DNA of 40,565 nucleotides from Chloroflexota bacterium (GTDB lineage: Bacteria; Chloroflexota; Limnocylindria; Limnocylindrales; CSP1-4): positions 1-40,565 of the forward strand of contig JACDFU010000004.1 in NCBI GenBank assembly GCA_013815585.1. Reading direction: 5' to 3'. Position 1 is the first letter of the stretch. Each line of letters starts with the position of its first letter. Below the pieces are notes generated by a model that searched no databases, had not been told where the DNA came from, and was given only the letters and a program-made list of their open reading frames with translations. The translations under genes and the position numbers were made by a program. Below, in pieces: positions 4,272-38,398 of the stretch.

Positions 4272-7200
4272 GTGACCTGTCTGCGATGCGGCAAAGAGAA
4301 CCCCGAAGGCGCCAGGTTCTGCCTGCAGTGCGGGAATCCGCTGACCGAGGCACCGCTTCAGGCCCGCGAGGAGCGGAAGGTTCTCACCGTCCTCTTCGCT
4401 GATCTGGTCGGCTTCACCTCTCAGGCAGAGCAGCTGGATCCCGAGGAGGTGCGGGCGATCCTGCAGCCATACCACGCGAGCGTCAGGGCCGACTTGGAGC
4501 GCTACGGTGGAACAGTCGAGAAGTTCATCGGCGATGCGGTCATGGCGCTCTTCGGGGCGCCGGTGGCCCACGAGGACGACCCGGAGCGGGCCGTCCGCGC
4601 AGGCCTGGCCATTCGCGAAACGCTCGCGAGCGATGGACGGCTCCACGTGCGGATCGGCATCACCACGGGTGAGGCGCTCGTAGCTCTGGAGGCCAGGCCG
4701 GAGACAGGAGAGGGAATGGCCGCCGGCGACGTCGTCAACACGGCGGCTCGGCTGCAGGGCGCGGCACCGGTGGACGGGATCCTGGTCGATGAGACGACGT
4801 ACCGGGCGAGCGCGCGAGCGATCGAGTACCGCGACCATGAACCGGTCACCGTCAAGGGCAAGAGCGAGTCGATCCGGGTGCACGAGGCCACTTCTGCAAG
4901 GGCGCGCTTCGGCGTTGACGTTCGCCAGGTCGGCCAGGCTCCCCTGGTCGGTCGGGCGCGTGAGATCGATCTGCTTGCGAGCGCCCGCGCCCGCGCCCGA
5001 GGTGAACGGGAGCCTCAGCTCGTGACGCTCGTTGGGGTGCCGGGGATCGGCAAGAGCCGCCTCGTCTGGGAGCTGTTCCAGCAGATCGATGCAGGATCCG
5101 AGCTGGTGTCGTGGCGCCAGGGGCGGTCGCTTCCCTACGCCGAAGGCATCTCGTTCTGGGCGCTGGGGGAGATCGTCAAGGCGGAGGCCGGGGTTCTTGA
5201 AACCGATCCGCCTGATGAGGCAGCGGCCAAGCTCTCGCGGGTGGTTGCCACCCTCGGCGTTGAAGTCTCTGATGCCGAGTGGATCGAGCGTCACCTGCGT
5301 CCGCTGGTGGGCCTGGAGGCCGGCACCGAGCTTCGAGGCGACCATCGGGGTGAGGCGTTCGCGGCCTGGACGCGGTTCCTCGAGGCGCTCGCGGACCAGC
5401 GCCCGCTCGTGCTCATCTTCGAGGATCTCCACTGGGCCGACGACGGGTTGCTGGACTTCATCGACTACCTCGTCGAGTGGGCGACGGGCGTGCCGCTGCT
5501 CATCGTGGCCACGAGCCGGCCCGAGCTCCTGTCGCGACGGCCGGGATGGGGCGGCGGCAAACCCAACGCGTTGACTGTCTCGCTCTCCCCACTCTCTGAG
5601 ACGGAGGCCGGACAGCTGGTGGCCGGCCTGGTCGAGCGAGCGGTCATCCCCGAGCGTGTGCGAGAGGCGGTGCTCGAGCGGGCCCAGGGCAATCCCCTTT
5701 ACGCGGAGGAGTTTGCCCGGCTGGTCTCGGAGGGCGGCGGGCTCGATGACCTGCCCGAGAGCGTCCAGGGCATCATCGCGGCCCGTCTCGACGCGCTGCC
5801 TCGCGAGGAAAAGCAGCTGCTTCAGGACGCCGCGGTCGTCGGGAAGGTGTTCTGGAGCGGTTCCCTTGCGCAGATGGCTGGCCGCTCGCGCACCGAATTG
5901 GAACAGCCGCTTCACCTGCTCGAGCGGAAGGAGTTCGCACGGCGTGAGCGACGATCGTCGGTGGCCGGCGAAACGGAGTACGCCTTCCGCCACATCCTCG
6001 TCCGGGACGTGGCCTACGGCCAGATCCCGCGCGGCGAACGCGCCGCACGGCATGCCGCGGCAGCGGAGTGGGTCGAGTCGCTGGGCCGCCCGGCAGATCA
6101 CGCCGAGCTGCTGGCCCAGCACTACCTCTCCGCGATCGAGCTCGCCCGAGCCGCGGGCCGACCGACCGACGCCTACGCGGTCCGCGCCCGTGTCGCGCTT
6201 CGGGAAGCAGGCGACCGCGCGCTCACGCTGAATGCCTTTGCCTCAGCGGCGCGCTATTACCGCGCGGCACTCGACCTGACGCCGCTCGACGATCCGGACC
6301 GATCCACCGTCCTCTTCCGGTTCGGCAAGGCGCTGCGGATCTCAGAGGAATCGGGTGCCGAGGTCCTGGCCGAGGCTGAGAAAGGGCTTCGGACCGCTGG
6401 CGATCACGAGTCGGCCGCCGAAGCCGCGGTGCTCCAGGCCGAGCTGGCCTGGTTCGGCGGAGATGGCACGCGGACCTGGCAGCACCTGGCCCGCGCGGCC
6501 GAGCTGGTCGACGGGCTTCCCGCCTCGGCCTCCAAGGCGTTCGTGCTGAGTGATCTCTCCCGGTTCCACATGCTGGCCGGACGTTCGGAGGAGGCGATCA
6601 CGGTTGGGACGCAGGCCTTGGAGATGGCGGAGGCACTGGGGCTCGATGAGGTCCGGGCCCACGCGCTCAACAACATCGGCACGGCGCACGTGAATCTGGG
6701 CGTGCACGAGCGGGGCATCGGGGAGCTGGAGTCGGCGCTCGAGATCGCGACCGCGATCAACACGCCGGAGTCAGCCCGGGTCATGAACAACCTGGCCAGC
6801 GTGCTCGCGACGCTCGGGGAGATGAAGCGAGCGCGATCCCTGTGGCGCCAGGCCCTGGCCCGTGCCCGGGAACTGGGGCATGCCTCGGTCGAGCGCTTCG
6901 GTCGGGCGATCATCCCCGGGATCGACTACCGCGAGGGGAACTGGGACCAGGCCCTGCGGTCACTGGATGAATACATCGCGGAGACGGAGGCCGCCGGCGG
7001 GCACGTGACGGAAACGACGTGCCGGGTCGATCGGGGACGGATCCGCTTCGCACGGGGCGACCTGCCGGGCGCGCTCGAGGATGCGGAGCGCGGACTGGTC
7101 GCGGCTCGCCGCTCCGGGGACCCGCAGTCCCTGGTGCCCGCGCTCGACTTCATGGCCTCACTGATGCTGCGGACGGGCCGGTACGCCGAGAGCGACACGC

Positions 7201-7652
7201 TGTTGGACGAGTTCCTCGGGCTGACCGACGTCCCGGAGGATCTCAGCGTCGATCTCGCCATCGCTCTCATCGAAAGCGGGAGGCGAGCAAAGCTGGAGCG
7301 TCGCGTGGCGCAGATGGGCGTGACGCGATGGAAGGAGCTGTTCGGGTTGATCGCCGCGGGCGGGGCCGAAGAGGCCGCGGACCAGTTCGAGGAGTTCGAC
7401 AGCCTACCGGACGCGGCTCTTCTCCGGCTTCACGTGGCCCAGCGCCTGGCGAACGAGGGGAGGGCTGCCGAGGCGCGAGCGCAATTGGACAAAGCTCTCG
7501 CGTTCTGGCGGTCGGTGGGGGCGCGCCCCTACCTCGAGGGGGCGGAAGGGCTGCTCGCCAGCCTGCAGCCAGCGGGCGCCGAGAGCCGGCGCCGCCGATC
7601 GCGCGCCGCTACTCCAGCGCGCGAACGTCCAGCTCGTCGCGAACCTCGATGA
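4272..7652 (+). CDS. Class III adenylate/guanylate cyclase fused to a STAND (AAA_16-like) ATPase and TPR-like repeats, with an N-terminal zinc ribbon
   Basis: CLRC..FCLQC zinc ribbon; VLFADLVGFT, KFIGDAVMA and GDVVNTAARLQ cyclase motifs; Walker A GVPGIGKS; Walker B LIFEDLHWAD; GNPLYAEE; helical repeat C-terminus. Confidence 0.9.
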   Translation: MTCLRCGKENPEGARFCLQCGNPLTEAPLQAREERKVLTVLFADLVGFTSQAEQLDPEEVRAILQPYHASVRADLERYGGTVEKFIGDAVMALFGAPVAHEDDPERAVRAGLAIRETLASDGRLHVRIGITTGEALVALEARPETGEGMAAGDVVNTAARLQGAAPVDGILVDETTYRASARAIEYRDHEPVTVKGKSESIRVHEATSARARFGVDVRQVGQAPLVGRAREIDLLASARARARGEREPQLVTLVGVPGIGKSRLVWELFQQIDAGSELVSWRQGRSLPYAEGISFWALGEIVKAEAGVLETDPPDEAAAKLSRVVATLGVEVSDAEWIERHLRPLVGLEAGTELRGDHRGEAFAAWTRFLEALADQRPLVLIFEDLHWADDGLLDFIDYLVEWATGVPLLIVATSRPELLSRRPGWGGGKPNALTVSLSPLSETEAGQLVAGLVERAVIPERVREAVLERAQGNPLYAEEFARLVSEGGGLDDLPESVQGIIAARLDALPREEKQLLQDAAVVGKVFWSGSLAQMAGRSRTELEQPLHLLERKEFARRERRSSVAGETEYAFRHILVRDVAYGQIPRGERAARHAAAAEWVESLGRPADHAELLAQHYLSAIELARAAGRPTDAYAVRARVALREAGDRALTLNAFASAARYYRAALDLTPLDDPDRSTVLFRFGKALRISEESGAEVLAEAEKGLRTAGDHESAAEAAVLQAELAWFGGDGTRTWQHLARAAELVDGLPASASKAFVLSDLSRFHMLAGRSEEAITVGTQALEMAEALGLDEVRAHALNNIGTAHVNLGVHERGIGELESALEIATAINTPESARVMNNLASVLATLGEMKRARSLWRQALARARELGHASVERFGRAIIPGIDYREGNWDQALRSLDEYIAETEAAGGHVTETTCRVDRGRIRFARGDLPGALEDAERGLVAARRSGDPQSLVPALDFMASLMLRTGRYAESDTLLDEFLGLTDVPEDLSVDLAIALIESGRRAKLERRVAQMGVTRWKELFGLIAAGGAEEAADQFEEFDSLPDAALLRLHVAQRLANEGRAAEARAQLDKALAFWRSVGARPYLEGAEGLLASLQPAGAESRRRRSRAATPARERPARREPR

Positions 7653-8339: not shown

Positions 8340-9659
8340 ATGGCCCCGGCTCAGCTGATCAATCTCATTCCGCTCGTCGAAAAGGCGTTTCTGATCGCCG
8401 TCGACACCGGGCGCGACGGCGGCTGGAGTGCCGAGGAGTCGCTCCGTGAGCTGGCGGCGCTCGCCGATACGGCCGGGGCCGAGGTGGTCGGTGCGGAGTG
8501 GCAGAACCGCCGGCACATCGATCCCAACTGGTACGTGGGCAAGGGCAAGGCGCAAGAACTTCAGCAGGCCCGCGCCGAGACCGGCTTCACCATGGTCGTG
8601 GCCGACGACGAGCTCAGCCCCAACCAGCAAAAGGCCCTCGAGTCGCTCCTCAACGTCAAGATCCTGGACCGCAGTGGGCTGATCCTCGACATCTTCGCCC
8701 AGCATGCCCGGACCCACGAAGGCCGCCTCCAGGTGGAGCTGGCTCAGCTGGAGTACCAGTTGCCCCGCCTGACGCGGCTCTGGACGCACCTTTCGCGCAC
8801 CGGCGGTGGGATCGGCACGAGGGGGCCCGGCGAGACCCAGCTCGAGACGGACCGCCGGGTCATCAGGGAGCGGATCAAGAAACTACGAGAGCGCGTCGAC
8901 GCGGTCCGCCGCCAGCGCGAAACGGCCGCTCGATCCCGCGATCGACGGCTGGTGCCGACCGTGGCGATCGTGGGGTACACGAACGCCGGCAAGTCGACCC
9001 TGCTCAACACGCTCGTCGGCAGCGAGGAAGCCCGCGCCGAGGACCGCCTCTTCGCCACGCTCGATCCGACGAGTCGCGCAGTCAAGCTGGGCGATGGCCA
9101 GTCGGTGGTCGTCACGGACACGGTTGGCTTCATCCACAAGCTGCCGCACCAGCTGGTGGACGCCTTTCGCGGCACGCTCGAGGAGGTCAACCGGGCCGAT
9201 GTCCTGCTCGAGGTGGTCGACGCCTCCGACCCGCATGCGACGGAACACCGACAGACCGTGCAGCAGGTGCTCGGCGAGCTCGGGGCCGGGGACAAGCCGC
9301 GCCTGGTCGCCTACAACAAGGCCGACCTGATCAGGCCCGCGGCCGGGAACGGGGAGACGCCGGCGCCTGTGATCGCCGACGCTGTCTCCGTGTCGGCGCT
9401 GACCGGCTACGGACTCGAGAGCCTCAGGGCAGCGCTCAGCGGCCTGCTCTCCGACCTGTGGGTCGACGTCGACGTGGCGCTGCCGTACACCGCCGGTGAG
9501 CTGCTCTCGCGCGTGCGGGAGCGGGGCACGGTGGAGCTGAGCTATCGCAACCGGGATGTGCGCGTACGAGGCCGGGTGGCTCCGACGCTCGCCGCGGAGC
9601 TTGAGGCGGCGACAGGCAAGACTGCGCCCGCCGGCAACGGGTCGGAGCCGGCGGCCTGA
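8340..9659 (+). CDS. hflX: Ribosome-splitting GTPase HflX
   Basis: LILDIFAQHARTHEGRLQVELAQLEY, GGGIGTRGPGETQLETDRR, G1 GYTNAGKST, LFATLDPT, DTVGF, NKAD. Confidence 0.97.
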   Translation: MAPAQLINLIPLVEKAFLIAVDTGRDGGWSAEESLRELAALADTAGAEVVGAEWQNRRHIDPNWYVGKGKAQELQQARAETGFTMVVADDELSPNQQKALESLLNVKILDRSGLILDIFAQHARTHEGRLQVELAQLEYQLPRLTRLWTHLSRTGGGIGTRGPGETQLETDRRVIRERIKKLRERVDAVRRQRETAARSRDRRLVPTVAIVGYTNAGKSTLLNTLVGSEEARAEDRLFATLDPTSRAVKLGDGQSVVVTDTVGFIHKLPHQLVDAFRGTLEEVNRADVLLEVVDASDPHATEHRQTVQQVLGELGAGDKPRLVAYNKADLIRPAAGNGETPAPVIADAVSVSALTGYGLESLRAALSGLLSDLWVDVDVALPYTAGELLSRVRERGTVELSYRNRDVRVRGRVAPTLAAELEAATGKTAPAGNGSEPAA

Positions 9660-9973
9660 AGGCAGGAACGACGATCGAGGTTGACAGCCAGCCCGCTCTG
9701 GACGGGACGCGTTGTGATGTCCGCGTTGCCGATGCCCTGGGCGAGACCCGTCACAGGGTCTGGATCAGCCAGGCGGACCTGGAGCACCTGGCGCCGCCCG
9801 GAACCGATGCCGATGCGCTGATTAGTGCCTCGTTCGCGTTTCTGCTGGAGCGTGAGCCAAAGGAATCGATCCTCAGCGAGTTCCGAATCGGCGAGATCAG
9901 CCGCTACTTTCCGGAGTACGACACCGAGATCCGGGCCGGGTTGGGTCCGCCCGATCCGCCGGGGACCTCCTAG
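9656..9973 (+). CDS. Small hypothetical protein (105 aa, CTG start; not in the ORF track)
   Basis: Open frame from CTG 9656 (CTGA overlap with the hflX stop, GGAG 8 nt upstream) to TAG 9973: LKAGTTIEVDSQ...ETRHRVWISQADLEHL...LISASFAFLLEREPKESILSEFRIGEISRYFPEYDTEIR. It fills the intergenic gap exactly, and the SFxFLLEREPKESIL..F....I.RYFPEY motif resembles a conserved hypothetical family as I recall it. Confidence 0.8.
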   Translation: MKAGTTIEVDSQPALDGTRCDVRVADALGETRHRVWISQADLEHLAPPGTDADALISASFAFLLEREPKESILSEFRIGEISRYFPEYDTEIRAGLGPPDPPGTS

Positions 9974-10722
9974 GGCGACCCTCCCGGCGACGGGGAGGCA
10001 TCCGGTACGGGCGAGGCGGAGGCACCAGGCCGTTGTGGGATCACGAGTCGCTGGCCGATCTCCAGGAGGTCGGGGTCCGCGATGTCGTTTGCCTCGACCA
10101 GGGCCTCGACGGTCACGCCGTAGCGCTCGGCAATCTCGCTGAGCGTCTCTCCCTCGACCACGACGTAGAGCGTCTCAGAGGCAGAGGGACTGGCGTCGTG
10201 GGAGGCAGAGGAACTGGCGTCGGGGAAGGCAGACGCAGGGCTCCCAGTCAGCGTTGGCGAGCTCGGACTGGGAGAGATGTCGAGCAGCTCGTGCTCCGGC
10301 GGTTGCTCCGGTGTCCCGGACACGAACCGAATGACCTCGGACGCACCCGTTGCGGCAACCGTCACCCCGGCCGCGAGGAACAACGCCACCACGACCGCCA
10401 GGGCAATCGACTGCAGGCGCACCATCAGCGGAACATCCGGCTCGAAGGCGGATCGCAGCGTCGCTCGATAGGAGGCGACCATGTCTGTCCAGGAGCGCGA
10501 CGCCACGGCGCGGGCGAAGGACCGAGCCGGCGTCGGGCGCGGCTCGCGGTCAATGACCGCATACGCCCGGTCGAGCAGTCCAGGCGGGACCTGTGGGGCA
10601 TTCTCCTGTGCGTGCGACCGGAGCGACTCGTCGACCAGCTCGAGCCCCTCGGGAAGCTCGCGAGCACCGGGCTCGACGTCATCAAGCCTGCGGTCGCCGT
10701 TCGGGCCGTTCACGCGCGTCAT
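9970..10722 (-). CDS. Putative anti-sigma factor: cytoplasmic N-terminus, one TM helix, Ser/Pro linker, C-terminal LysM domain
   Basis: YVVVEGETLSEIAERYGVTVEALVEANDIADPDLLEIGQRLVIP is a canonical LysM; TM IALAVVVALFLAAGVTVA; ATGA overlap with the ECF stop. Confidence 0.8.
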   Translation of the reverse strand: MTRVNGPNGDRRLDDVEPGARELPEGLELVDESLRSHAQENAPQVPPGLLDRAYAVIDREPRPTPARSFARAVASRSWTDMVASYRATLRSAFEPDVPLMVRLQSIALAVVVALFLAAGVTVAATGASEVIRFVSGTPEQPPEHELLDISPSPSSPTLTGSPASAFPDASSSASHDASPSASETLYVVVEGETLSEIAERYGVTVEALVEANDIADPDLLEIGQRLVIPQRPGASASPVPDASPSPGGSP

Positions 10723-11321
10723 CCCTCACCCTCGGAGACCGGTCCCGATGAGCCGGCCGAGCCCCGCAGGCGCTCGAGCCCGCGATGCAGGTGCGTCTTG
10801 ACCGTTCCCAAAGGCCGCCCGGTCGCAGCCGCGATCTCGCTCAGCGACAGCTCAGCGAAGTAGCTGAGCGTGATGACCTCGCGCTGCTGATCGGGAAGGT
10901 CCGCGACCTCGCGCAGCAGCGCCTGCCGCCTCTCCGCCGTGAGCGCGGCGTCGACCGGATCGGCCTGCGCACGATCAGGAAGCTCGCTGACGGCCTCGAG
11001 CGGAACTGCGTCGCGTCGGCGCGCACGGCGAGCCAGGGAGCGCCGCGAGGCGATGCGTGAGAGCCATCCCCGCAGCGTCCCTTCCCCTCGGAACGTGTTA
11101 AGTGACCGGTAGGCCGTCAAGAAGGTCTCCTGGGTGGCGTCCTCCGCCTCCTGGGGGTCCGTGAGCACTCGATAACAGACGCGATACACGATCTCGGCGT
11201 GGCGTTCCATCAGGATCCGGAAGGCCTCGCGATCCCCCTGGGCGGCGGCTCGGACCGTCGCCCCTTCGTCGTACGGCTCCGCCTCTCCGTCCCCGACAAG
11301 GTCGCTTCTCTGGTGGCTCAC
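10719..11321 (-). CDS. ECF (sigma-70 group 4) RNA polymerase sigma factor
   Basis: GDREAFRILMERH, EAEDATQETFLTAY, WLSRIA, LPDQQREVITLSYFAELSLSEIA, GTVKTHLHRG. Confidence 0.93.
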   Translation of the reverse strand: MSHQRSDLVGDGEAEPYDEGATVRAAAQGDREAFRILMERHAEIVYRVCYRVLTDPQEAEDATQETFLTAYRSLNTFRGEGTLRGWLSRIASRRSLARRARRRDAVPLEAVSELPDRAQADPVDAALTAERRQALLREVADLPDQQREVITLSYFAELSLSEIAAATGRPLGTVKTHLHRGLERLRGSAGSSGPVSEGEG

Positions 11322-11365
11322 CCGCTCATGGTGCCCGATCTATCTACATCGAGCCTGTACTACAT

Positions 11366-11392
11366 GAGGGCGCCGGACGGGCAATCGGTTTC
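11366..11392 (-). promoter_or_regulatory. Putative autoregulatory ECF promoter GAAACC-N16-CCCTC
   Basis: Minus strand GAAACC GATTGCCCGTCCGGCG CCCTC ATG, ~45 nt upstream of the ECF start; same motif and spacing at 14909-14935 and 38372-38398. Confidence 0.6.
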
Positions 11393-11449
11393 GTTGCAAG
11401 AGAAATTAGTTCCGGTGACACCCACTTGCAAGGCGAGGGGTTGTCGAAG

Positions 11450-11977
11450 CTACTCCTGGGCTGCGCCCCCGGGCACGAACAGCGAGACGTCCACCGTGAT
11501 CGTCACCGCCTTCAGCTCCGCGAGGTCGATGCAGGCCTGGTCGGCCGCAGCGGCCCTCGCACCCTCGAGGACGGTCACAGTGAAGCCGCCCTCATCGTTG
11601 CGGTCGATCGAGGCGTCGGCAAGGCCGTAGCAGTCCTCGACGCCACCGTAGTAGTAGATCGTCGCCGTACGACCGTCCGCGGCGATCGAGACATGGTCGA
11701 AGGTGTGCGGGATGGGATTGATGATGCCGGGCTCCGGCACCACGACTCGTGCGCCGCCGTCGAGCCCCACGCCGGCCCCGGGATCCACGCCCGCCCCGGG
11801 ATCCACCGGATCGGCCGGTTTGCCGACGACGCCGCCGTTCGGATCGCCCGTACCAGGGTCGGAACCTCCGCCGGTGGGCTCACTGGCCACCACGGCAGCC
11901 GAACACGCGGTGGCCAGGATGAGGACCGCGCAGAGCGACAGGAGGCGAGCGGCAGGTCGAAGTACCACGTCGAACAT
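11450..11977 (-). CDS. Hypothetical lipoprotein
   Basis: ATG 11977; signal peptide ending LILATAC (lipobox-like); Gly/Pro linker with DPGAGV repeat; C-terminal beta-rich domain with two Cys (GGVEDC...QACIDLA). Confidence 0.75.
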   Translation of the reverse strand: MFDVVLRPAARLLSLCAVLILATACSAAVVASEPTGGGSDPGTGDPNGGVVGKPADPVDPGAGVDPGAGVGLDGGARVVVPEPGIINPIPHTFDHVSIAADGRTATIYYYGGVEDCYGLADASIDRNDEGGFTVTVLEGARAAAADQACIDLAELKAVTITVDVSLFVPGGAAQE

Positions 11978-12043
11978 GAGAAACCTCGGGTATGTACCTG
12001 GCCGACCCACTCCCCGGTGGTGAGCGAGCAGCTGGTGACCCGA

Positions 12044-12070
12044 TGACGGCCGCACTGTTGACTCGGTTCC
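12044..12070 (-). promoter_or_regulatory. Putative ECF promoter GGAACC-N16-CGTCA
   Basis: Classic ECF -35 AAC / -10 CGTC pattern in the intergenic region upstream of the lipoprotein gene. Confidence 0.45.
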
Positions 12071-12117
12071 CACCCCATTCGATCGTGAGCAGGCTCGCTG
12101 GGACGGACCAAGCTCGG

Positions 12118-13968
12118 TCAGCGGGGAGTGCCGACTCCCTCGGTGCAGGCTCCGCCGCGCTCCGGAGCTGTTGCGGCCAGGCGGAAAGCCTGGATGAATT
12201 GGCGGAGTCGAGGATCGTCGGGCCCATCCACGGCCAGCTGGCGGCCCCATGCCGTTGTCACCACGGGCGCACTCAGACCGTCATATGGGCTGACCAGGAT
12301 GTGAATCTGGCTGTAGGCGATCGAGCGCAGCCGAGCCTTCTGGTCGTCCGGCAACTCGGGCCGGTAGGCGATCCAGACAGCGCCGTGCTCGAGGGAGTGG
12401 ACGACATTCTCGTCAGCGATCGGCGCGTCGTAGAATCCGCAGTTCTGCCAGATCGGGGCGTGGTCACCTCCGACCGGCGGTCTCTGTTCGTAGGCGACCG
12501 AGCCCTGCACGTGACTTCGACCGGCGACCGCAACGGTCTGCACGTCACCGGGGGCCGAGGCAAGAAACGGTAGCTGCGGGATCCACAGGATGCCCAGGAC
12601 GGCTGCAGCTCCCACCCCGGTCAGGCCAGCGGTCAGCGCGCGTCGCGGGTTAACCCGCCCCCATCCGACCAGGCCGGCAAGAAGCCTACGTCCGACCAGG
12701 ACGATGAGATAGACAGTGACCGCCAGCGGCAGGACTGCCAGGGCGAGCTGAAGGAGGGCCAGGGCAATCCCATCGGCGCGTCCCTGTTCCCGTGCCTCGG
12801 CGAGCTGCCCTAGCTGATGGAGCGTCGCATCCGAGGCCGCCGCAACGAGCGCCGGTACCCCGCCCACAACCAGGACGATGAGAACCGCGAGCGCCGGGAT
12901 CGTGAGCGCCAGGAAGACCAGAAAAGTGACACGAGGTGCACGGCGAAGCTCAGGCAGCCGTTCCCCCGCTCCCCCACGTGAGCCGAGGAGACTTCGGATG
13001 AAGGGGCCCGCCTGGGAGAAAAGGTCCGGCACACCTGCGAGGTCGGTCAAAACCCAGTAGCCGTCGAGTCTCAGGAACGGAATTAGCTGGCGCACGATCT
13101 CGACGTCGATCAGCAGAACGCCGAGCAGCAGGAATGGCTGACCGGTGAGCAGGTAGAGCCCGATGATCCCCAGCGCCGCAAGGAGGTGGAAGTAGATGCC
13201 GCCGAGATCGGTGCGCAACCTTCCGGCACGTGACAGGCGATAGCTGTCGGTGACATCGGTGAAGAGCGCGGGGTAGACGAGAAAGAGGCCGACCCCCATC
13301 GCGCCGACGCGCCCGCCCCCGTAGACGAGGGCTGCAGCGTGACCCAGCTCGTGCACGATGCCCGCCAGGACGAGCAGGAGGAGCAGAACGAGGATGAGAG
13401 CGGGCGCGTACAGCAGCTGGAGCACGCTGTCGGAGATCCCACGCGCTGCGAACAGCCAGGCATGGCTGGCACCGATCAGAGCAACCAGAACCACGACGAG
13501 CGGCGGCCAGAACAGCCACCGAAGGGGTTTCGCCAGCGCATTCACGGTCGACTCCGGGACCACCCCCAGCCGGGTATGAAGTCCGAGCGCTGACCCGGCG
13601 GCGGGGAGCGTCGACGCTGCTCCACCTCCTTCGGCCACGATCAGCCCCAGCGGTGTCAGCTTCTTGTCGATGAGAAGGGCAACCTGCTCGGCACTGACCA
13701 GCCAGGGGCTCGACCTGCTGACGACAGCCGCGATCTCCTCGACGGTCCGGCGGCCATCGATGACTTCTGCAACCCGATACAGGAGCTCCGTGAGCTGAAC
13801 GAACCGGCCTTCGCGGCGGACCAGCCACTGCTCCTGCGCGAAGCCACTCCCCTGCAGCTTGCCGACCAGCTCAACGCCGTTCGTCAATGAGGGTGGCTTC
13901 TCGAGGGCGGGCACGTTGCCCTGGACACGCAGGCTTGCGCGACGGTCGTCCATCTCGATGAGCATCAA
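12118..13968 (-). CDS. M50 (site-2-protease-like) intramembrane zinc metalloprotease with N-terminal PqqD/RRE-like domain and C-terminal DUF3105 domain
   Basis: HExxH motif VHELGH in a TM segment and QLIPFLRLDGY (variant of NxxPxxxLDG); N-terminal WLVRREGRFVQLTELLYRVAEVIDGRRTVEEIA resembles the PqqD winged-helix pattern; C-terminal PPVGGDH..WQNCGFY...VHSLEHGAVWIAY is DUF3105-like. Start TTG 13968 or ATG 13965. Confidence 0.85.
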   Translation of the reverse strand: MMLIEMDDRRASLRVQGNVPALEKPPSLTNGVELVGKLQGSGFAQEQWLVRREGRFVQLTELLYRVAEVIDGRRTVEEIAAVVSRSSPWLVSAEQVALLIDKKLTPLGLIVAEGGGAASTLPAAGSALGLHTRLGVVPESTVNALAKPLRWLFWPPLVVVLVALIGASHAWLFAARGISDSVLQLLYAPALILVLLLLLVLAGIVHELGHAAALVYGGGRVGAMGVGLFLVYPALFTDVTDSYRLSRAGRLRTDLGGIYFHLLAALGIIGLYLLTGQPFLLLGVLLIDVEIVRQLIPFLRLDGYWVLTDLAGVPDLFSQAGPFIRSLLGSRGGAGERLPELRRAPRVTFLVFLALTIPALAVLIVLVVGGVPALVAAASDATLHQLGQLAEAREQGRADGIALALLQLALAVLPLAVTVYLIVLVGRRLLAGLVGWGRVNPRRALTAGLTGVGAAAVLGILWIPQLPFLASAPGDVQTVAVAGRSHVQGSVAYEQRPPVGGDHAPIWQNCGFYDAPIADENVVHSLEHGAVWIAYRPELPDDQKARLRSIAYSQIHILVSPYDGLSAPVVTTAWGRQLAVDGPDDPRLRQFIQAFRLAATAPERGGACTEGVGTPR

Positions 13969-14510
13969 CGAAGGAGCTCGCCGGCGATCGAGTCCTGGAC
14001 GAGCTGAGCCGTGGCGTCCGTGTCGGCGCTCACGAGCCAGTTTGGTCCCGCGACGCGGGGGACGCTTTCGACGCCCGCCTCGCCAAGCAGTGCCCCTATG
14101 CTGGCAAGGTACCGATTTCGGGCACCTGGATCTTGGAAGACCCGGATGACGACATCATCGGCGCCGATCTTGCAGCGGCCGGCGTCCAGCTCGCCGGACC
14201 CCGCGGGTCGACTCTCGAGCCCCTCACAGGTGACACCCCGGTCGGCCAGCGCCTGTACCAGGCTCGTCGCGCTATCGAAGGTTGGACCCTGTGTTCCAAG
14301 ACTGGCATAGGCCGCAGCGTCTCCCTCCCCCGACAGCCCGAAGCCTTGCCCTCGCTGGTCCGTGGTGAGGCTAAACAGGACGATGACACCGGCCAGGACC
14401 AGCAGGGCTGTGAGGATGACACCGAGTTGGGCTCGGCGCCCTCCGAACAGCCTTGGCCGCCCGTTCACCCGCGCTCCCGCGGCGGCGTGATCAACCGACG
14501 CTTCCTTCAT
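13965..14510 (-). CDS. Hypothetical single-pass membrane protein with extracytoplasmic two-Cys domain
   Basis: TM LGVILTALLVLAGVIVLFSL; LADRGVTC...GRCKIG...VAGPNWLV; GAGGGAG RBS; stop overlaps the protease start. Confidence 0.75.
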   Translation of the reverse strand: MKEASVDHAAAGARVNGRPRLFGGRRAQLGVILTALLVLAGVIVLFSLTTDQRGQGFGLSGEGDAAAYASLGTQGPTFDSATSLVQALADRGVTCEGLESRPAGSGELDAGRCKIGADDVVIRVFQDPGARNRYLASIGALLGEAGVESVPRVAGPNWLVSADTDATAQLVQDSIAGELLR

Positions 14511-14546
14511 GCTCCCTCATCCGGCGGGGAGCCATTGTGGCCCACC

Positions 14547-14577
14547 AACAGAAAGCGGGCCGGTCGAGCCGGCCCGC
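14547..14577 (-). terminator. Intrinsic terminator/attenuator-like hairpin after the peptide gene
   Basis: Perfect 9-bp stem GCGGGCCGG-CTCGA-CCGGCCCGC followed by TTTCTGTT on the minus strand. Confidence 0.65.
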
Positions 14578-14614
14578 CATGGTTACCGGACCCCATCGAG
14601 GGGTCGCGGGGTTC

Positions 14615-14851
14615 CTACTGCTTCTGCTCGATTGTGCAGGTTAGCGGGGTGCTCAGCCAGGTGCTGAGTGCGGTCACGACTGCGCAGACTTGCACAGCGA
14701 CGTTGTTGTTTTTCACCTCGAGCTTCAGATCATTCAGGATGTTCACGCTGCCGATCACGATGGTCACGAGCATCGTCTCGCGCGCCGGGAGCTCGAAGCC
14801 GGCCTGGGACTCGAGATCGGCAGTCGTTAATGCGGTCTTGGTAAGCGACAT
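14615..14851 (-). CDS. Small precursor-like protein (78 aa): acidic leader ending ELPARETM plus a hydrophobic beta-rich core with two Cys
   Basis: Strong AAGGAGG RBS before ATG 14851; MSLTKTALTTADLESQAGFELPARETM-LVTIVIGSVNILNDLKLEVKNNNVAVQVCAVVTALSTWLSTPLTCTIEQKQ; first gene of the cluster containing the RRE-M50 protease. Confidence 0.8.
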   Translation of the reverse strand: MSLTKTALTTADLESQAGFELPARETMLVTIVIGSVNILNDLKLEVKNNNVAVQVCAVVTALSTWLSTPLTCTIEQKQ

Positions 14852-14908
14852 GAATAAGCCTCCTTGGGCTCTGGGGCGCCTCGTGGGTTGCGGCGCGTCA
14901 CTGGTAAA

Positions 14909-14935
14909 GAGGGGCACGAGGCCCCGAACGGTTTC
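14909..14935 (-). promoter_or_regulatory. Putative ECF promoter GAAACC-N16-CCCTC upstream of the peptide gene
   Basis: Minus strand TGAAACC GTTCGGGGCCTCGTGC CCCTC TTT; same boxes and spacing as upstream of the ECF gene. Confidence 0.6.
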
Positions 14936-14944
14936 ACGGATCCT

Positions 14945-14960
14945 CTACGGGAATCCGCAG
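14945..14960. promoter_or_regulatory. LuxR-type palindromic operator candidate CTACGG-GAAT-CCGCAG
   Basis: Near-perfect 16-bp palindrome 9 nt upstream of the -35 box, between the peptide gene and the divergent LuxR-family regulator; 13/16 match to the PimM-type consensus CTVGGGAWWTCCCBAG. Confidence 0.4.
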
Positions 14961-15048
14961 ACTCTCAGCAAACCCGCAACGCCCGATTTACGGGAACAGG
15001 TGGGTATGCGCTCGTCCCTAAGACGGCGACATCCATACCATCCGGTGC

Positions 15049-17844
15049 GTGTCAGCGATCGTTGCCCGGAGCGCCGAGCTGGCGCAGGTGCAGGAATTCC
15101 TGGACGAAGTCCTCGCGGGCCCCGCCGCGATGGTGCTGGAAGGCGAGACCGGCGCAGGCAAGACGACCATCTGGAAGGCCGCTCTCGAGGCGGCACTTGC
15201 CCGGGGATACCGCGTCCTCTCCTGTCGCCCTGTCGAGGCCGAGTCGTCGCTGGCGTTCGCGGCGCTTGGCGACCTGTTTGATGGCGTGCTGGAAGAACTG
15301 GATCCACCGCTGCCTGGACCCCAGCAGCACGCACTCGAAGTTGCGATTCTCGTCGCCAATCCCGAGGGTCCACCGCCAGACCAGCGCGCCGTTTCAGTGG
15401 CTTCACTGGGCGTTCTTCGGTCGCTCTCGGCGCGCTCACCCGTACTCGTGGGCGTCGATGACCTCCACTCGATGGACATCGCATCCGCTCGGGTCCTCGA
15501 GTTCGTGCTTCGGCGTCTCGAGGTCGACCGCGTGGGCTTCGTCGCGGGACTGCGCAGCGGAGATACGGCCCCACTGTCGATGGACCAGACCTATCCGGAG
15601 GCACGCCTTCACCGGCTGGCGGTCGGCCCGCTCGACGGCGACGCACTGGACGAGCTGTTCCGCTCGCGCCTGGGCGGAAGCTTCCCCAGACCCGTGCTGC
15701 GGCAGATCGAAGCGGCATCTGGGGGCAACCCGCTGTTTGCACTGGAGATCGCCAAAGGCATCCTCCGCGGAGACGTCAGTGCTGAGCCCGGGGAACACCT
15801 TCCTGTCCCCGACACGCTCCAGGAACTCATTCGCGACCGGCTGGGAGCGTTGTCAGCTGACGTGCGGGATGTCCTTTCAGCGGCCGCCGCATTGTCCGAT
15901 CCAACGCTTGAGATGCTGGAGCGTGCCGCCCCGACCGAAATGCCGACGCTCCGCGCGGTGGAGGAGGCGATCGAAGCCGGAATTGTCGAACTGAGCGGGC
16001 AGAGCCTTCAGTTCAGCCACCCCCTGTTCGCCTCGACGCTATACCACCAGATCACTCCCAAACGCAGGCGCGCGCTGCATCGTCGACTGGCTGACCTCGT
16101 GTCCACCCCGGAGGAGCGGGCACTTCACCTCGCACTTGCCGCGGCCGGTCCCGACGCCGCCGTGGCTGCCGCGCTGGACCAGGCGGCTCGAAGGGCCGCC
16201 GCGCGCGGCGCCCCGGACGCTGGCGCCGACCTCTCCGAGCAAGCGTACCGACTGACCCCCGCGAGAAGTGCCGGGGAGGCAACTCGCCGGCGAGTCGAGG
16301 CAGCGGAGTATCACTTCGCGGCGGGCGACACTGGGAGGGCACGTCGCCTGCTGGAGGAAGTCGCATCAGCCGCGGAGCCGGGGCCGGTCCGCGCGGGCAT
16401 CCTCCGCCGCCTGGCCAAGGTGCGCTACCGTAGCGACAGTTGCTCCGTAGCCGCGGAGCTTCTCAACCGAGCCCTCCAGGAGACGGGCGACAACCCCTCG
16501 GCGCGAGCCGAGATCCAGCGCGATCTCGCCTGGGCTGTGACGTTGTGTGGTGACGTACCGAACGCGGCGGAATACGCGCAGGCTGCGCTCCAGGCGGTTC
16601 AGGGCGAGACGGCTGAGCAGATGGTGCCGGAGCTCCTCGCGGCTTCCGCAATGGCCGAGTTCCTCCTGGGGCGCGGGATCCCCAGGGATCTCATGCGCCG
16701 CGCTGTAGAGCTCGAACGACCCAGTCCCGACGTTCCGATCGAGTGGCGCCCCAGCATGGTGCTGGGCATGATGCTCAAGTGGTCCGGCGACCTCATCGGC
16801 GCCCGAACGCGCTTCGAGAATTTGCACCGGCAGGTGCTTCAGGCGGGGGAGGAAACGTCCCTCGCATTTCTGCTTTCCCAGATGAGCGAGGGCGCAACGC
16901 TCGAGGGCGATTGGAGCACGGCGCTTCGGCAGGCGGACGAGGCCGACAAATTCGCCCTGCAAACTGGTCAGGACCTGGTTCGGGCCGGCGTGCTCTATGC
17001 CAAGAGCCTCGTCCAGGCGCACATGGGCCACGCGGATGAGGCGCGTGAAACCGCCCGTGCGGGCCTGGCCCTTTCGGAGCGGGTCGGCTCGGTGCTGACC
17101 ATGATGCTCAACCAGACCGTGTTGGGGTTCGTGGAGCACTCGCTCGAGAAACCAGCCGCCGCGCACGGCTACCTGGCACCGTTAGTCGCCTGGCTCGACA
17201 TCGTCGGAATTCGGGAGCCGGGTATCTTCCGGTTCGTCCCGGACGAGGTGGAGGCCCTGATCGCCCTCGGCGATCTTGACAAGGCACAGGCACTGCTTGC
17301 GCCCTACGAGGAGGACGTCGCGCGGCTCGACCGACCGTCACCGCTCCTGGCGGCCGCCCGCTGCCGCGCGCTGCATACCGGTGCGGTGGGCGATTCCTCG
17401 GCCGCGGCGTCATTGCTCGAACGTGGCTTGAGCGACCACGGAGAGCTTGCCCAGCCCTTTGAGCGTGCCCGTGCCTGGCTTGTGATGGGTACGATCCAGC
17501 GTCGTACCCGGCAGCGGCGAGCCGCTCGAGCGTCGCTTCAACAGGCGTTGGAGATCTTCGACCACCTGGGTGCCAAGTTATGGTCATTGCGGGCGCGGCG
17601 TGCGCTAGGCATACGAATGGAGCGGGGATCGACAGGCGGGGCCGTGCTCACGCCGGCCGAGCGGCGCGTAGCCGAGCTGGTCGCCTCGGGTGGTACGAAT
17701 CGCGAGGTCGCCGACCGCCTGTTCGTGAGCGTGAGAGCCGTCGAGCTCCACCTCACGAGTATCTACCGTAAGCTCGGCATCAGGTCTCGCACTGAGCTTG
17801 CGCTAAAGATCGTGCGTGACGACGCAGCGGTCGCTCGGATGTGA
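15049..17844 (+). CDS. LAL/MalT-like regulator: N-terminal STAND ATPase and C-terminal LuxR HTH
   Basis: Walker A GETGAGKT, Walker B VGVDDLH, GGNPLFALE, FSHPL; C-terminal LTPAERRVAELVASGGTNREVADRLFVSVRAVELHLTSIYRKLG. Confidence 0.92.
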   Translation: MSAIVARSAELAQVQEFLDEVLAGPAAMVLEGETGAGKTTIWKAALEAALARGYRVLSCRPVEAESSLAFAALGDLFDGVLEELDPPLPGPQQHALEVAILVANPEGPPPDQRAVSVASLGVLRSLSARSPVLVGVDDLHSMDIASARVLEFVLRRLEVDRVGFVAGLRSGDTAPLSMDQTYPEARLHRLAVGPLDGDALDELFRSRLGGSFPRPVLRQIEAASGGNPLFALEIAKGILRGDVSAEPGEHLPVPDTLQELIRDRLGALSADVRDVLSAAAALSDPTLEMLERAAPTEMPTLRAVEEAIEAGIVELSGQSLQFSHPLFASTLYHQITPKRRRALHRRLADLVSTPEERALHLALAAAGPDAAVAAALDQAARRAAARGAPDAGADLSEQAYRLTPARSAGEATRRRVEAAEYHFAAGDTGRARRLLEEVASAAEPGPVRAGILRRLAKVRYRSDSCSVAAELLNRALQETGDNPSARAEIQRDLAWAVTLCGDVPNAAEYAQAALQAVQGETAEQMVPELLAASAMAEFLLGRGIPRDLMRRAVELERPSPDVPIEWRPSMVLGMMLKWSGDLIGARTRFENLHRQVLQAGEETSLAFLLSQMSEGATLEGDWSTALRQADEADKFALQTGQDLVRAGVLYAKSLVQAHMGHADEARETARAGLALSERVGSVLTMMLNQTVLGFVEHSLEKPAAAHGYLAPLVAWLDIVGIREPGIFRFVPDEVEALIALGDLDKAQALLAPYEEDVARLDRPSPLLAAARCRALHTGAVGDSSAAASLLERGLSDHGELAQPFERARAWLVMGTIQRRTRQRRAARASLQQALEIFDHLGAKLWSLRARRALGIRMERGSTGGAVLTPAERRVAELVASGGTNREVADRLFVSVRAVELHLTSIYRKLGIRSRTELALKIVRDDAAVARM

Positions 17845-24894: not shown

Positions 24895-25416
24895 TCAATC
24901 TCCCCGTTCGTCGGGAGGATCGCGCCGGAGTTCCTGGGCGACTCTCTCGAGCAGTTCCAGGTGGCCGGCGTCCTTCGGACGACCGGCGGTCCTGTTCATC
25001 GCGATCAAGTGATCCACGCTCGCGACCGGGTACGTGGCTGAGCCATGGATTGTTCGCGCACTTGCCGCGAGCGACGTGTAGGTCAGTCCGGGAGCCGGCT
25101 CGTCGAGGAGATCGAGTCGCCCAAACCTCGTCTTCAACGTCCAGACGCTTCCGCTTGCCAGCGACCGCTCGTCCAGCTTGACCGTTACGCCGGACGGTAG
25201 GCCGATGGGCTCGGCGTCCAGAGCCGCAAGCGCAGCCGCGAGGTGTGTGAGGTCTTGCCGGTCCCGGGCGTACACAAGATCGAGATCCGTCGTCAGCCAC
25301 ATGGCACCCTGTACGCCGGCGGCGATGCCGCCAATCACGACAAACCGCACTCGGTGTTCGTTCAGGACGCGGATGATCGCGATTGGATCGAAAACGCCGG
25401 CCGCGTCCTCGGTCAC
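24895..25416 (-). CDS. Nucleotidyltransferase-fold protein (MNT/DUF6036-like, TA-associated)
   Basis: VRFVVIGGIAA, TTDLDLV, GRLDLL, LIAMNRTAGRPKD. Confidence 0.8.
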   Translation of the reverse strand: MTEDAAGVFDPIAIIRVLNEHRVRFVVIGGIAAGVQGAMWLTTDLDLVYARDRQDLTHLAAALAALDAEPIGLPSGVTVKLDERSLASGSVWTLKTRFGRLDLLDEPAPGLTYTSLAASARTIHGSATYPVASVDHLIAMNRTAGRPKDAGHLELLERVAQELRRDPPDERGD

Positions 25417-28199: not shown

Positions 28200-28232
28200 G
28201 ACTTACCTCGCGCTCATCCGATCCGCCCACAT

Positions 28233-28258
28233 GCTACGACTGTAGCGGCAGTGCTACA
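28233..28258. promoter_or_regulatory. Putative TA autoregulatory operator (GCTAC/GTAGC inverted repeats)
   Basis: TGTAGC-GGCAGT-GCTACA inverted repeat plus an extra GCTAC, just upstream of the Phd antitoxin start. Confidence 0.55.
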
Positions 28259-28267
28259 TTGAGCGGC

Positions 28268-28522
28268 ATGACCGAGGTCGCTTCGCGTGAACTCCGCAAC
28301 AACACACGTGCGCTGCTCGATCGCGTCGCGGCCGGCGAGTCGGTGACGATCACGGTCGACGGGCGACCGGTCGCGGTCCTCGCCCCCGTCGGACGGCGCC
28401 CGCGCTGGATGCCCAAGGAGGAATTCCTGCGGATGCTGAGCGGGCGCCAGGCTGACCCCGGCCTCACAAAGGTGCTCAGAGAACTCGCTCCCGACACGAC
28501 CGACGACATCCCGCTGGCGTGA
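28268..28522 (+). CDS. Phd/YefM-family antitoxin (VapB)
   Basis: MTEVASRELRNNTRALLDRVAAGESVTITVDGRPVAVLAP. Confidence 0.9.
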   Translation: MTEVASRELRNNTRALLDRVAAGESVTITVDGRPVAVLAPVGRRPRWMPKEEFLRMLSGRQADPGLTKVLRELAPDTTDDIPLA

Positions 28523-28905
28523 CCGACGGTCTCGCCGACACGTCCATCTTCGTCGCCCGGGAGTCGGGCCGGCCGGTCCGGGCAGACGTGGTGCCCCAGC
28601 GACTCGCCGTGTCGGTAATCACGATCGGCGAGCTTCGCGCCGGAGTCCTCGCAGCCGAGGATCTCGAGACCAGGGATCGCCGTCTCGTCACGCTGACGCT
28701 CGCGCTGTCCCTCGATCCGGTACCCGTCGATGATCGCGTCGCGGAAGCGTGGGCACGCCTGCGGCTGGCCCTCGCCAAGGCGGGCCTCCGCATGCCGGTC
28801 AACGACTCCTGGATCGCCGCCACCGCGATGGCCCTCGGCGTCCCGGTCGTGACGCAGGACGACGATTACGTCGAGGTGCCGGGGCTCGCGGTCATCCACG
28901 CCTGA
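28519..28905 (+). CDS. vapC: VapC/PIN-domain toxin
   Basis: GLADTSIFVA, SVITIGELRAG, NDSWIAATA, VVTQDDDY. Confidence 0.92.
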   Translation: MTDGLADTSIFVARESGRPVRADVVPQRLAVSVITIGELRAGVLAAEDLETRDRRLVTLTLALSLDPVPVDDRVAEAWARLRLALAKAGLRMPVNDSWIAATAMALGVPVVTQDDDYVEVPGLAVIHA

Positions 28906-37770: not shown

Positions 37771-38321
37771 GCGAGTCGCTCCTGCGAACTGGATGGCGAC
37801 CGGGCGTCGGCCTCGAGGCTTGCCCGGAGCGCGCGGGTGGCGTGGTGGAGTCGGGACTTGGCGGTCCCAACAGGAATTCCCAGACGATCGGCCACCTCGG
37901 TGAGAGGCAAGCCGACGTAGTGGTGGAACACGAGCACCGACCGCTGCTCCAGGGTGAGCCTCCGGAAGGCTCGGTCCAGTTGGTCACGGTCGTTGACGGC
38001 CGAGATCTCACCTGACTCCAGCTGACCTGGCATGGGCAAGAGTCGGATTTGGGTCGACCAGCGCCTGCGACGCCTGGCCTCGGCGTAGCACTCGTTGGTC
38101 AGGATCCGATGCAGCCAGGGTTCGAAGCGTTCGGCGTCGCGCAGCGTGCGCAGCTCACGCCAGGCCATGATCAGCGCGGCTTGCACAGCGTCATCGGCCC
38201 GGTCGGCGTCGCGCAGGATCCGAAACGCGATCGCCATGCATCTGTCGCCGACCGTGCGGGCGAGGGCATCGAAGGCCTCTCGATCGCCCCGTTTCGCCTG
38301 GTCTACGAGTGCTCGCTGCAC
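37767..38321 (-). CDS. ECF RNA polymerase sigma factor
   Basis: AKRGDREAF, ADDAVQAAL, FEPWLHRIL, LTLEQRSVLV, GIPVGTAKSRLHHA; GTG 38321 after GGAGAG. Confidence 0.92.
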   Translation of the reverse strand: MQRALVDQAKRGDREAFDALARTVGDRCMAIAFRILRDADRADDAVQAALIMAWRELRTLRDAERFEPWLHRILTNECYAEARRRRRWSTQIRLLPMPGQLESGEISAVNDRDQLDRAFRRLTLEQRSVLVFHHYVGLPLTEVADRLGIPVGTAKSRLHHATRALRASLEADARSPSSSQERLA

Positions 38322-38371
38322 CCGACTCTCCTTCCCCTGGGATCGGTCCGAGTGGACGCGATCACCCTTGA

Positions 38372-38398
38372 GAGGGATCTCTGTGCCCGGAAGGTTCA
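38372..38398 (-). promoter_or_regulatory. Putative autoregulatory ECF promoter TGAACC-N16-CCCTC
   Basis: Minus strand TGAACC TTCCGGGCACAGAGAT CCCTC TCAA, ~50 nt upstream of the ECF start. Confidence 0.55.

Follow-up and report, generated by a model that had tools for sequence, protein, structure and literature searches.

A precursor peptide and an RRE-fused intramembrane protease form a conserved cassette in a Chloroflexota bacterium, a probable cut-and-release route without modification

The stretch of DNA analysed here, 40,565 nucleotides from a Chloroflexota bacterium (GenBank assembly GCA_013815585.1, contig JACDFU010000004.1; hereafter the window), carries on its minus strand a gene for a 78-residue precursor peptide (14615..14851, start ATG at 14851) and a gene for a 616-residue protease (12118..13968), which joins a RiPP (peptide made on the ribosome and modified after translation) recognition element (RRE), a site-2 protease core of seven transmembrane spans and a DUF3105 domain. 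We consider it probable that the two genes, accompanied in some loci, the window included, by a third, form a cassette in which the precursor is encoded together with its own leader peptidase and the product is cut and released without modification. The evidence is computational and consists of the pairing of the two genes across loci, the folds and catalytic motifs of the protease, the predicted docking of the leader, and the exchange of the leader for a signal peptide in a sister subfamily of the peptide.

In the mechanism that we propose, the cytoplasmic, PqqD-like RRE of the intramembrane zinc protease would take up the leader at about residues 16-21 as an extra strand of its sheet, and the invariant LPxRE(T)M segment, with the start of the hydrophobic core, would be fed into the HExxH/LDG active site. 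Cleavage at or beside M27/L28 would free a core of about 51 residues, hydrophobic, rich in Asn and Val and carrying two invariant Cys, which would come to lie at the membrane's outer face, where C56 and C72 probably form a disulfide. It may be received there by the protease's C-terminal domain, which faces outward and is DUF3105 here and a LolA-like DUF2092 in Acidobacteriota. The cassette would amount to a private cut-and-release route in place of a signal peptide and signal peptidase, with no need for leader-dependent modification.

The AlphaFold model of the protease (predicted local distance difference test, pLDDT, 83.8; predicted template modelling score, pTM, 0.78) contains a winged-helix domain of the RRE/PqqD type at residues 18-115 (13624..13917, minus strand), with strands at 32-37, 48-52 and 55-59 and helices at 61-69, 76-86 and 93-104. 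In VIA-align comparisons this domain matches the lasso-peptide RRE TbiB1 (Z 8.4, root-mean-square deviation, rmsd, 3.0, 83 residues aligned), PqqD (Z 7.2) and the RREs of LynD/TruD, TbtB and ThcOx (Z 6.8-7.3), in agreement with the PqqD-like N-terminus assigned in a first-pass annotation of the window made from the sequence alone. The alignment profile gives a weak match to PqqD (3g2b; expectation value, E, 0.037), and the Pfam PqqD model is not significant on the window protease, the RRE fold being taken from the structure model.

Residues 132-470 (12559..13575, minus strand) form an M50-like membrane core, with seven hydrophobic spans in the hydropathy profile. In the same type of comparison, the part from 132 to 414 resembles an RseP orthologue (Z 9.7, rmsd 3.5, 126 aligned), SpoIVFB (Z 9.1) and MjS2P (Z 8.6), and H206-E207-x-x-H210 and D302, the latter in an LDG motif, are invariant in 92 aligned sequences. 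Loops rich in Lys and Arg (240-254, 300-343 and 436-443) share the side of the membrane with the RRE, opposite the C-terminal domain, which places the RRE in the cytoplasm and DUF3105 outside. Pfam M50 (PF02163) scores 7.1 bits on the window protease (E 4.1), below its gathering score of 27.2, and 25.4 bits on the homologue at locus L004; Foldseek with the whole protease model returned no match at E 0.001 or better.

The best NCBIfam match of the protease is the daptide_HExxH model NF041824 (residues 45-367, E 9.2e-33), yet its 113.9 bits fall far under the equivalog cut-off of 300, and the whole-genome search gave no NF041824 match above that cut-off. The YydH/LiaK model NF058609 covers residues 188-311, that is, the catalytic core with no RRE (E 8e-14, 51.9 bits, under the cut-off of 225). 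As judged from these sequence scores, the protease is related to the daptide protease, yet below that family's cut-off. In an exhaustive HMMER search the protease family counts 1070 representatives at a threshold of E 1e-30 and 4981 at one of E 1e-10; most align over about residues 20-470 and then diverge in length.

Complex prediction with protease residues 15-470 and peptide residues 1-45, from unpaired alignments, gave an ipSAE of 0.73, against 0.01 for the best of three controls; in calibration, 58 of 80 solved complexes attained this mark, as did 2 of 110 mismatched pairs, and the score may be partly likeness, since solved RRE-leader and SpoIVFB-substrate complexes exist. The runs share at least 73% of their contacts, with a partner pLDDT of at least 62. 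The interface comprises residues 5-8, 12-13 and 15-30 of the peptide and residues 54-63, 84-107, 203-210, 229-243 and 300-302 of the protease. In the complex model, contacts are closest between peptide residues 16-21 and the third strand of the RRE (protease residues 55-60), and peptide residues 22-30 face protease residues 203, 206-207, 210, 229-243 and 300-302, so that residues up to 30 are placed at the active site. This model supports binding of the leader by the protease.

The two genes travel together. A scan started from the protease, with one genome per species, yielded 22 loci, seven of which (L001-L007, from metagenome-assembled genomes, MAGs, of Chloroflexota and Acidobacteriota) include the membrane-protease part; a scan of metagenomes started from the peptide yielded 64 loci, 50 of them with at least 300 bp beyond the last peptide copy. 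The protease is the next gene after the peptide in 48 of these 50, the two exceptions being L026, where the contig ends within the gene for the 181-residue protein, and L088, to which we return below. Among the seven genome loci, five (L001 and L003-L006) have a peptide homologue directly upstream of the protease (E no worse than 1e-27), L007 shows three tandem copies there that match weakly, and L002 is too short upstream to show any. L001 and L003 are from genomes of Ktedonobacterales and Chloroflexia type. Co-occurrence of small ORF (open reading frame) and protease, an RRE-type N-terminal domain and co-folding of leader and protease had been named in the first-pass annotation as checks of its core idea, an RRE-M50 protease that would process a leader peptide near the LPxRE(T)M motif with no tailoring enzymes, and that idea is supported by all the tests run.

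The conserved unit is smaller than the six genes first proposed: it is the peptide and the protease, sometimes with the gene for the 181-residue protein between them. This protein (13965..14510, minus strand) is read by eye as a membrane protein of one span whose C-terminal domain, with two Cys, is extracytoplasmic; Pfam assigns it to no family, and its ESM Atlas clusters are unnamed. Nine of the 64 metagenome loci, as well as L002 and L003, have a homologue between the two genes, and the 181-residue protein is an optional accessory of the cassette. Neither it nor the lipoprotein encoded beyond the protease was kept as a universal part, because most loci lack them. Two peptide hits occur in six metagenome loci, and in L081 both are pieces of one interrupted copy; there (L081:1013-3188) the peptide and protease genes each align as two pieces in different frames, possibly through frameshifts or sequencing errors.

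A search of 5.8 billion protein clusters with the peptide found 72 proteins of 74-86 residues at E ≤0.01, the window's own included, of which 40 were aligned. L21, P22, R24, L28, L39, N48, V51-Q54, C56, A57, C72 and Q76 are invariant and M27 is near-invariant. The leader spans about residues 1-27, with the motif LPxRE(T)M, and the core about residues 28-78; the mean frequency of the top residue is about equal in the two parts (0.67 and 0.70). The core is hydrophobic (grand average of hydropathicity, GRAVY, 0.65) and rich in Asn and Val, and the C-terminal residue is Gln, Lys, Gly, Arg or Ser, with Thr in no aligned sequence. The peptide has no Pfam match at E up to 10 and no NCBIfam model, and in the ESM Atlas it falls in unnamed clusters. 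Its named relatives come from Actinomycetota MAGs, the named cluster members being one hypothetical protein of an Actinobacteria/Actinomycetota MAG and one "uncharacterized membrane protein". The cassette occurs only here and there: no copy of the peptide was found in 60 relatives of the same family and order, and one of 400 other sampled genomes of the phylum has it (G433), with the protease again following it.

Evidence on what the leader does comes from L088, which encodes a 96-residue protein whose C-terminal half is a core of the window type behind a different N-terminus, with no protease within 1.1 kb downstream. A search with this protein gave 207 proteins at E 0.001 or better, and among the 120 matches listed, 35 (95-119 residues) match it over its full length. 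All 22 aligned members of this subfamily have a DRR motif, a hydrophobic stretch rich in Gly, Ala and Leu, and an AEA-type (Ala-x-Ala) site, features that, compared by eye with the consensus, look like a twin-arginine signal peptide. The likeness to the leader-type peptides starts exactly after the Ala-x-Ala site, at M27/L28 of the window peptide, which itself has no signal peptide. Since one core is shared behind two N-termini, the core of about 51 residues is taken to be the functional unit, acting outside the cytoplasm as the first-pass annotation had supposed; since the signal-type subfamily has no leader, the core should need no leader-guided modification; and the swap implies that leader and RRE-protease do the job of signal peptide and signal peptidase. 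Several signal-type members (P0357, P0366, P0368, P0372, P0373 and P0375-P0377) have a C-terminal Gly-rich stretch, in several of them ending in a Lys/Arg-rich tail, which leader-type peptides lack.

Distant relatives of the RRE-protease also follow small open reading frames. At L007:4693-5927, three tandem peptides with an LPDREAM-type leader and long, repetitive Ala/Asn/Val-rich cores unlike that of the window precede a 726-residue RRE-protease; at L021:602-1204, three tandem small ORFs with a DRRELF-type leader and short Cys-rich cores stand before a distant RRE-protease, as does one small ORF at L019:5585-5779. The L019 and L021 leaders are of the DRRELF or EDRLEF type, and the two proteases are 27-33% identical to that of the window. 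The pair of leader and RRE-protease looks modular, because distant RRE-proteases follow small ORFs with related leaders and other cores.

The extracytoplasmic DUF3105 domain (residues 486-609; 12142..12513, minus strand) is assigned by Pfam (PF11303, E 6.5e-44, 149.6 bits against a gathering score of 25). Modelled alone with 81 sequences (pLDDT 95.9), it shows a thioredoxin-like fold without CxxC; its best VIA-align match, a middling one, is thioredoxin f (Z 6.5, rmsd 3.2, 98 aligned), nearly all other matches are thioredoxin-fold proteins at Z 6.5 or lower, and the likeness may be only a common arrangement. Foldseek with the domain model returned no match at E 0.001 or better, and a PDB sequence search with the domain profile gave nothing below E 0.37. 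In domain numbering, H34, H55, H59, W38, N40 and Y44 are invariant, and H17, C41, E58 and C139 are near-invariant; the conserved His cluster, which includes an HSLEH motif, and the conserved Cys suggest a metal site and an internal disulfide. By Pfam, proteases ending in DUF3105 are those of the window, L001, L003, L052, L059, L069 and L074, to which tblastn adds L048, L057, L062 and L067; L005 and L054, of Acidobacteriota type, have a weak DUF2092 (LolA-like) ending, and the C-termini of L004, L006, L007 and L043 have no assigned domain. Candidate roles for DUF3105 are a receiver, a chaperone or an oxidant for the two-Cys peptide. In four of nine loci with a stand-alone DUF3105 gene, all of Rubrobacterales type, a ferritin-like gene follows it (L013:4920-6247, L016:3-1199, L020:5602-7051, L022:5767-7104), and together with the invariant His cluster these neighbours hint at a metal-related role.

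The same His cluster gives substance to a different account, in which the core is a cryptic RiPP, modified by DUF3105 outside the cell or by enzymes encoded elsewhere. H34, H55, H59, H17 and E58 resemble a metal site on a thioredoxin-like scaffold, the peptide has two invariant Cys, and a preprint reports that RiPP clusters of uncharacterised kind contain DUF3105 proteins, for which it proposes a modification of unknown type (10.1101/2023.10.26.563470, preprint). However, the same peptide family is served by proteases with DUF2092 or unassigned endings (L004-L007, L043 and L054), the signal-type subfamily does without a leader, so that leader-guided modification is not required, and the thioredoxin-like match reaches only Z 6.5. 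We therefore hold such a modification to be unlikely.

Several points weigh against cut and release by the RRE-protease as we propose it. The docking result may partly reflect memory of solved complexes, and the alignments used for it were unpaired. Cleavage, export and the disulfide are all steps that we infer, as are the exact cut site and the role of the ectodomain, and a 51-residue peptide would have to cross the membrane without a transporter. The core may yet be modified by DUF3105 or by enzymes whose genes lie elsewhere. The absence of a protease near the signal-type subfamily comes from a single locus (n=1) and 1.1 kb of sequence. Finally, the equal conservation of leader and core is unlike that of most RiPP precursors and fits a protein of one fixed structure.

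As to what the cassette releases, a self-assembling surface or structural peptide is our tentative choice, somewhat short of an even chance; a membrane-active antimicrobial is conceivable at perhaps one chance among several, and a signal is improbable. The specific alternative in which processing is the same, the product is an unmodified bacteriocin that acts on membranes and the 181-residue protein is its immunity factor appears rather unlikely to us. It would suit the hydrophobic core (GRAVY 0.65), the patchy spread (0 of 60 relatives, 1 of 400 other genomes of the phylum), the tandem peptide copies in several loci, and the fact that the nearest characterised proteases mature daptides and epipeptides (10.1101/2023.03.08.531785; PMC10885120). 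Against it, the core is highly conserved over three phyla (in the alignment of 40 sequences, 14 columns do not vary), which is not the usual diversification of bacteriocins; only 9 of the 64 metagenome loci have the gene that would confer immunity; and no ABC immunity or export genes recur in the scanned neighbours.

Extending the preferred reading, one may speculate, with clearly less confidence, that an RRE-guided site-2 protease is a complete export-maturation machine and that in three or more phyla of soil bacteria the released, disulfide-stapled, Asn/Val-rich beta core assembles by itself on the cell surface into a chaplin-like functional amyloid or coat. The ectodomain, which varies between DUF3105 and a LolA-like type, would be the receiving chaperone, the two routes would have been swapped in evolution, and the wider family, with its 1070 representatives and many ectodomains, would be a general secretion route.

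The first-pass annotation had instead placed the peptide in a six-gene system under an extracytoplasmic function (ECF) sigma factor, in which the peptide gene is turned on by a cell-wall signal that a LysM membrane protein perceives. Its inventory of genes is confirmed. Six ORFs of one orientation occupy 9970-14851 on the minus strand; besides the three already described they encode a 175-residue lipoprotein-like protein directly 3' of the protease (11450..11977), of uncertain membership in the cassette, whose lipoprotein-type signal, a Cys after a hydrophobic stretch, was read by eye with the start placed at 11977, an ECF sigma factor (10719..11321, Pfam sigma-70 r2/r4) and a 250-residue membrane protein with a C-terminal LysM domain (9970..10722, Pfam). 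The adjacency and common orientation of the six genes, the overlap of the ECF and LysM genes in sigma/anti-sigma style, and a GAAACCG word upstream of both the peptide and the ECF genes all speak for such a system.

The comparison of loci does not bear out this regulatory scheme. A tblastn search of the 86 related loci (22 genome and 64 metagenome; E 1e-3) found no counterpart of the ECF, LysM or lipoprotein gene, Sigma70_r2 has no hit among 72 neighbour ORFs of 12 long loci, and a gap of 128 nt lies ahead of the ECF gene. The longest exact words common to the upstream regions of the peptide and ECF genes are 7-mers, of which there are four different ones, and 1478 of 2000 dinucleotide-type shuffles reach a shared word of 7 or longer, so that the shared word is expected by chance; the GAAACCG-type pattern has 3 matches against 0.19 expected, the pattern itself having been drawn from these two sites. 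In the related loci L027 and L028 the word does not keep its position, and the shared ECF promoter was accordingly rejected, together with ECF control and the cell-wall signal through LysM. We regard the six-gene, ECF-controlled system as very unlikely; the ECF sigma and LysM genes form an operon that adjoins the cassette and is unrelated to it.

A regulatory role has also been weighed for the protease itself. Site-2 proteases classically cleave anti-sigma factors, and with an ECF/anti-sigma-like pair lying two genes downstream, the protease might act in regulated intramembrane proteolysis, for example by cutting the LysM anti-sigma-like protein, with the peptide as a tethered regulator or decoy. 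However, the protease co-occurs with the peptide and with no sigma/anti-sigma pair, it is the core and not the leader that is kept when the N-terminus becomes a signal peptide, and a second M50-like gene in the same genome could do housekeeping proteolysis, all of which makes this account extremely improbable. That second gene, a weak match at G000:C100:2945-3364 (E 5.6e-5) in an open frame of 395 residues, may be a housekeeping site-2 protease.

Leader-dependent cut and release by a small cassette is also consistent with the neighbours of the two genes. Pfam was run on 72 of the 136 ORFs from the 12 long loci and on 50 of the 82 ORFs upstream of the peptide in the 31 metagenome loci with at least 600 bp upstream, the ORFs left out being short, distant from the cassette or covered already. 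Within these 72 and 50 ORFs no tailoring enzyme, ABC exporter or sigma factor recurs, in keeping with the lack of tailoring enzyme and exporter reported for the window at first; isolated methyltransferases appear among them only at L056, L057 and L059. GerE (LuxR-family) regulators lie upstream in 6 of the 31 metagenome loci, and one also at L004. The three closest loci, L026-L028, all included in the six, have the same divergent AAA-TPR-GerE gene as the window, where it encodes a 931-residue protein with AAA_16, TPR and GerE domains by Pfam (15049..17844, plus strand; an uncertain candidate regulator). If there is a local regulator at all, this divergent LuxR-family gene is a likelier one than the ECF sigma/LysM pair.

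Other neighbours recur within groups of loci. A gene for an HhH-GPD glycosylase is found upstream in 7 of the 31 loci, which looks like synteny within one lineage. Lipoprotein-like genes 3' of the protease at L052:9024-9581, L069:2699-3106 and L074:7854-8417 are homologous to each other and unrelated to that of the window. In three loci of Acidobacteriota type a large co-oriented gene follows the protease (L004:7929-10457, L005:8025-10010, L006:7968-9560), with CarboxypepD_reg repeats in L004 and copies homologous to each other in L005 and L006.

The transcription signals of the peptide gene first described in the window were found again. A Shine-Dalgarno sequence, AAGGAGG (14859..14865, minus strand), stands 7 nt upstream of the ATG as a strong ribosome-binding site, and a G+C-rich hairpin with a T-rich tail follows about 37 nt past the stop codon (14554..14578, minus strand; a 10-bp stem with 9 G-C pairs). 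It is the sole terminator-like site within 9800-15100, a 106-nt stretch that contains it folds at -55.5 kcal/mol (z -2.8), and 43 of 56 related loci show folding at z below -2 in the 90 nt past the peptide stop, by comparison with mononucleotide shuffles. The hairpin is likely a partial terminator or a stem that stabilises the mRNA. A scan of 9800-15100 for sigma-70 promoters found no sites, and none of the 17 sequencing runs listed as carriers is recorded as RNA.

The remaining genes of the window are, by Pfam, housekeeping or unrelated. The only radical SAM gene (2-1117) lies 13 kb from the cassette beside a tRNA isopentenyltransferase (IPPT) gene, the two spanning 2-2037 on the plus strand with hflX farther on (8340-9659, plus strand), and it is not a candidate for peptide tailoring because this arrangement looks like the housekeeping miaB-miaA-hflX order. 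Between them a 1126-residue adenylate/guanylate cyclase-AAA_16-TPR protein is encoded (4272-7649, plus strand). On the minus strand, 25416-31846 holds genes for a 928-residue N6_N4_Mtase DNA methylase, a 221-residue protein without a Pfam family and a 984-residue ResIII helicase-type protein, a trio that from its domains looks like a type III restriction-modification system, and 37770-38399 encodes a second ECF-type sigma factor.

RRE domains serve as markers of RiPP clusters and are assumed to recruit modifying enzymes. The peptide served by the RRE-protease here appears to have no need of leader-guided modification, the same core being exported elsewhere by a twin-arginine signal. If this is true, RRE-fused site-2 proteases would be a stand-alone cut-and-release route and not only the last step of RiPP maturation, and many "orphan" RRE-peptidase genes would be explained, in a family of 4981 representatives at E 1e-10 or better. 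The peptide family (207 protein clusters, unnamed in all libraries searched) would be a new conserved extracytoplasmic peptide of soil bacteria.

Among known systems, the sister subfamily presumed to be exported by the twin-arginine route has the core and the inferred mature N-terminus of the window peptide; it differs in relying on a twin-arginine signal peptide and presumably signal peptidase, whereas the window peptide would use a leader and the RRE-protease. Chaplins, extracytoplasmic proteins of about 50 residues when mature, are hydrophobic, have two conserved Cys and are exported by Sec signals. The window core resembles them by analogy only, in size, hydrophobicity, two Cys and extracytoplasmic location; the peptide has no sequence match to chaplins (Pfam at E up to 10), and a search with PF03777 found none in 151 genomes of the phylum, nor in the 14 control genomes, so that this search carries no information.

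With RseP, SpoIVFB and MjS2P the window protease shares the catalytic fold, the HExxH and LDG motifs and, as we infer, a substrate with its N-terminus in and its C-terminus out. It differs from them in having no PDZ or CBS domains, the substrate being captured by the RRE according to the docking model, and in that the useful product would be the outer fragment and not the cytoplasmic one.

Intramembrane M50 proteases mature epipeptides and pearlins, and for one of them, EpeP, a double role in the cleavage and the export of its epipeptide is assumed (PMC10885120). YydH/EpeP of Bacillus subtilis is, like the window protease, an intramembrane HExxH protease that removes a leader (PMC10885120). 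However, the YydH/LiaK match is confined to the catalytic core and stays under its cut-off, and the radical SAM epimerase and ABC transporter of epipeptides have no counterpart as partners of the cassette in the scanned neighbours.

Daptides have a similar architecture. The first-pass annotation knew of no characterised pathway with this architecture, a claim that does not hold for the fusion itself: the daptide leader peptidase MpaP (MpaP/DapP) is an intramembrane site-2 protease with an RRE fused at its N-terminus, and it too stands beside small ORFs, whose leaders share an acidic motif at the N-terminus and whose cores have many branched aliphatic residues (10.1101/2023.03.08.531785). The daptide leader motif is ELExMEAP and the daptide core ends in an invariant Thr (10.1101/2023.03.08.531785), whereas the leader motif of the cassette is LPxRE(T)M and its core ends in Gln, Lys, Gly, Arg or Ser, in no aligned sequence in Thr. 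The genes for a DUF-RRE protein, an oxidative decarboxylase, an aminotransferase and a methyltransferase that accompany daptides are absent near the cassette in the window, and none recurs in the scanned neighbours, while the window protease carries an extra extracytoplasmic domain. The literature searched describes neither the peptide family nor an RRE-protease cassette that lacks tailoring genes, although the RRE-family lists of the daptide paper, in supplements outside the search, may include such proteases. By scores, leader, C-terminus and partner enzymes the cassette thus falls outside both daptides and epipeptides; relative to daptides, the RRE-site-2 protease fusion was already known, and what differs is the peptide family and the absence of modification genes.

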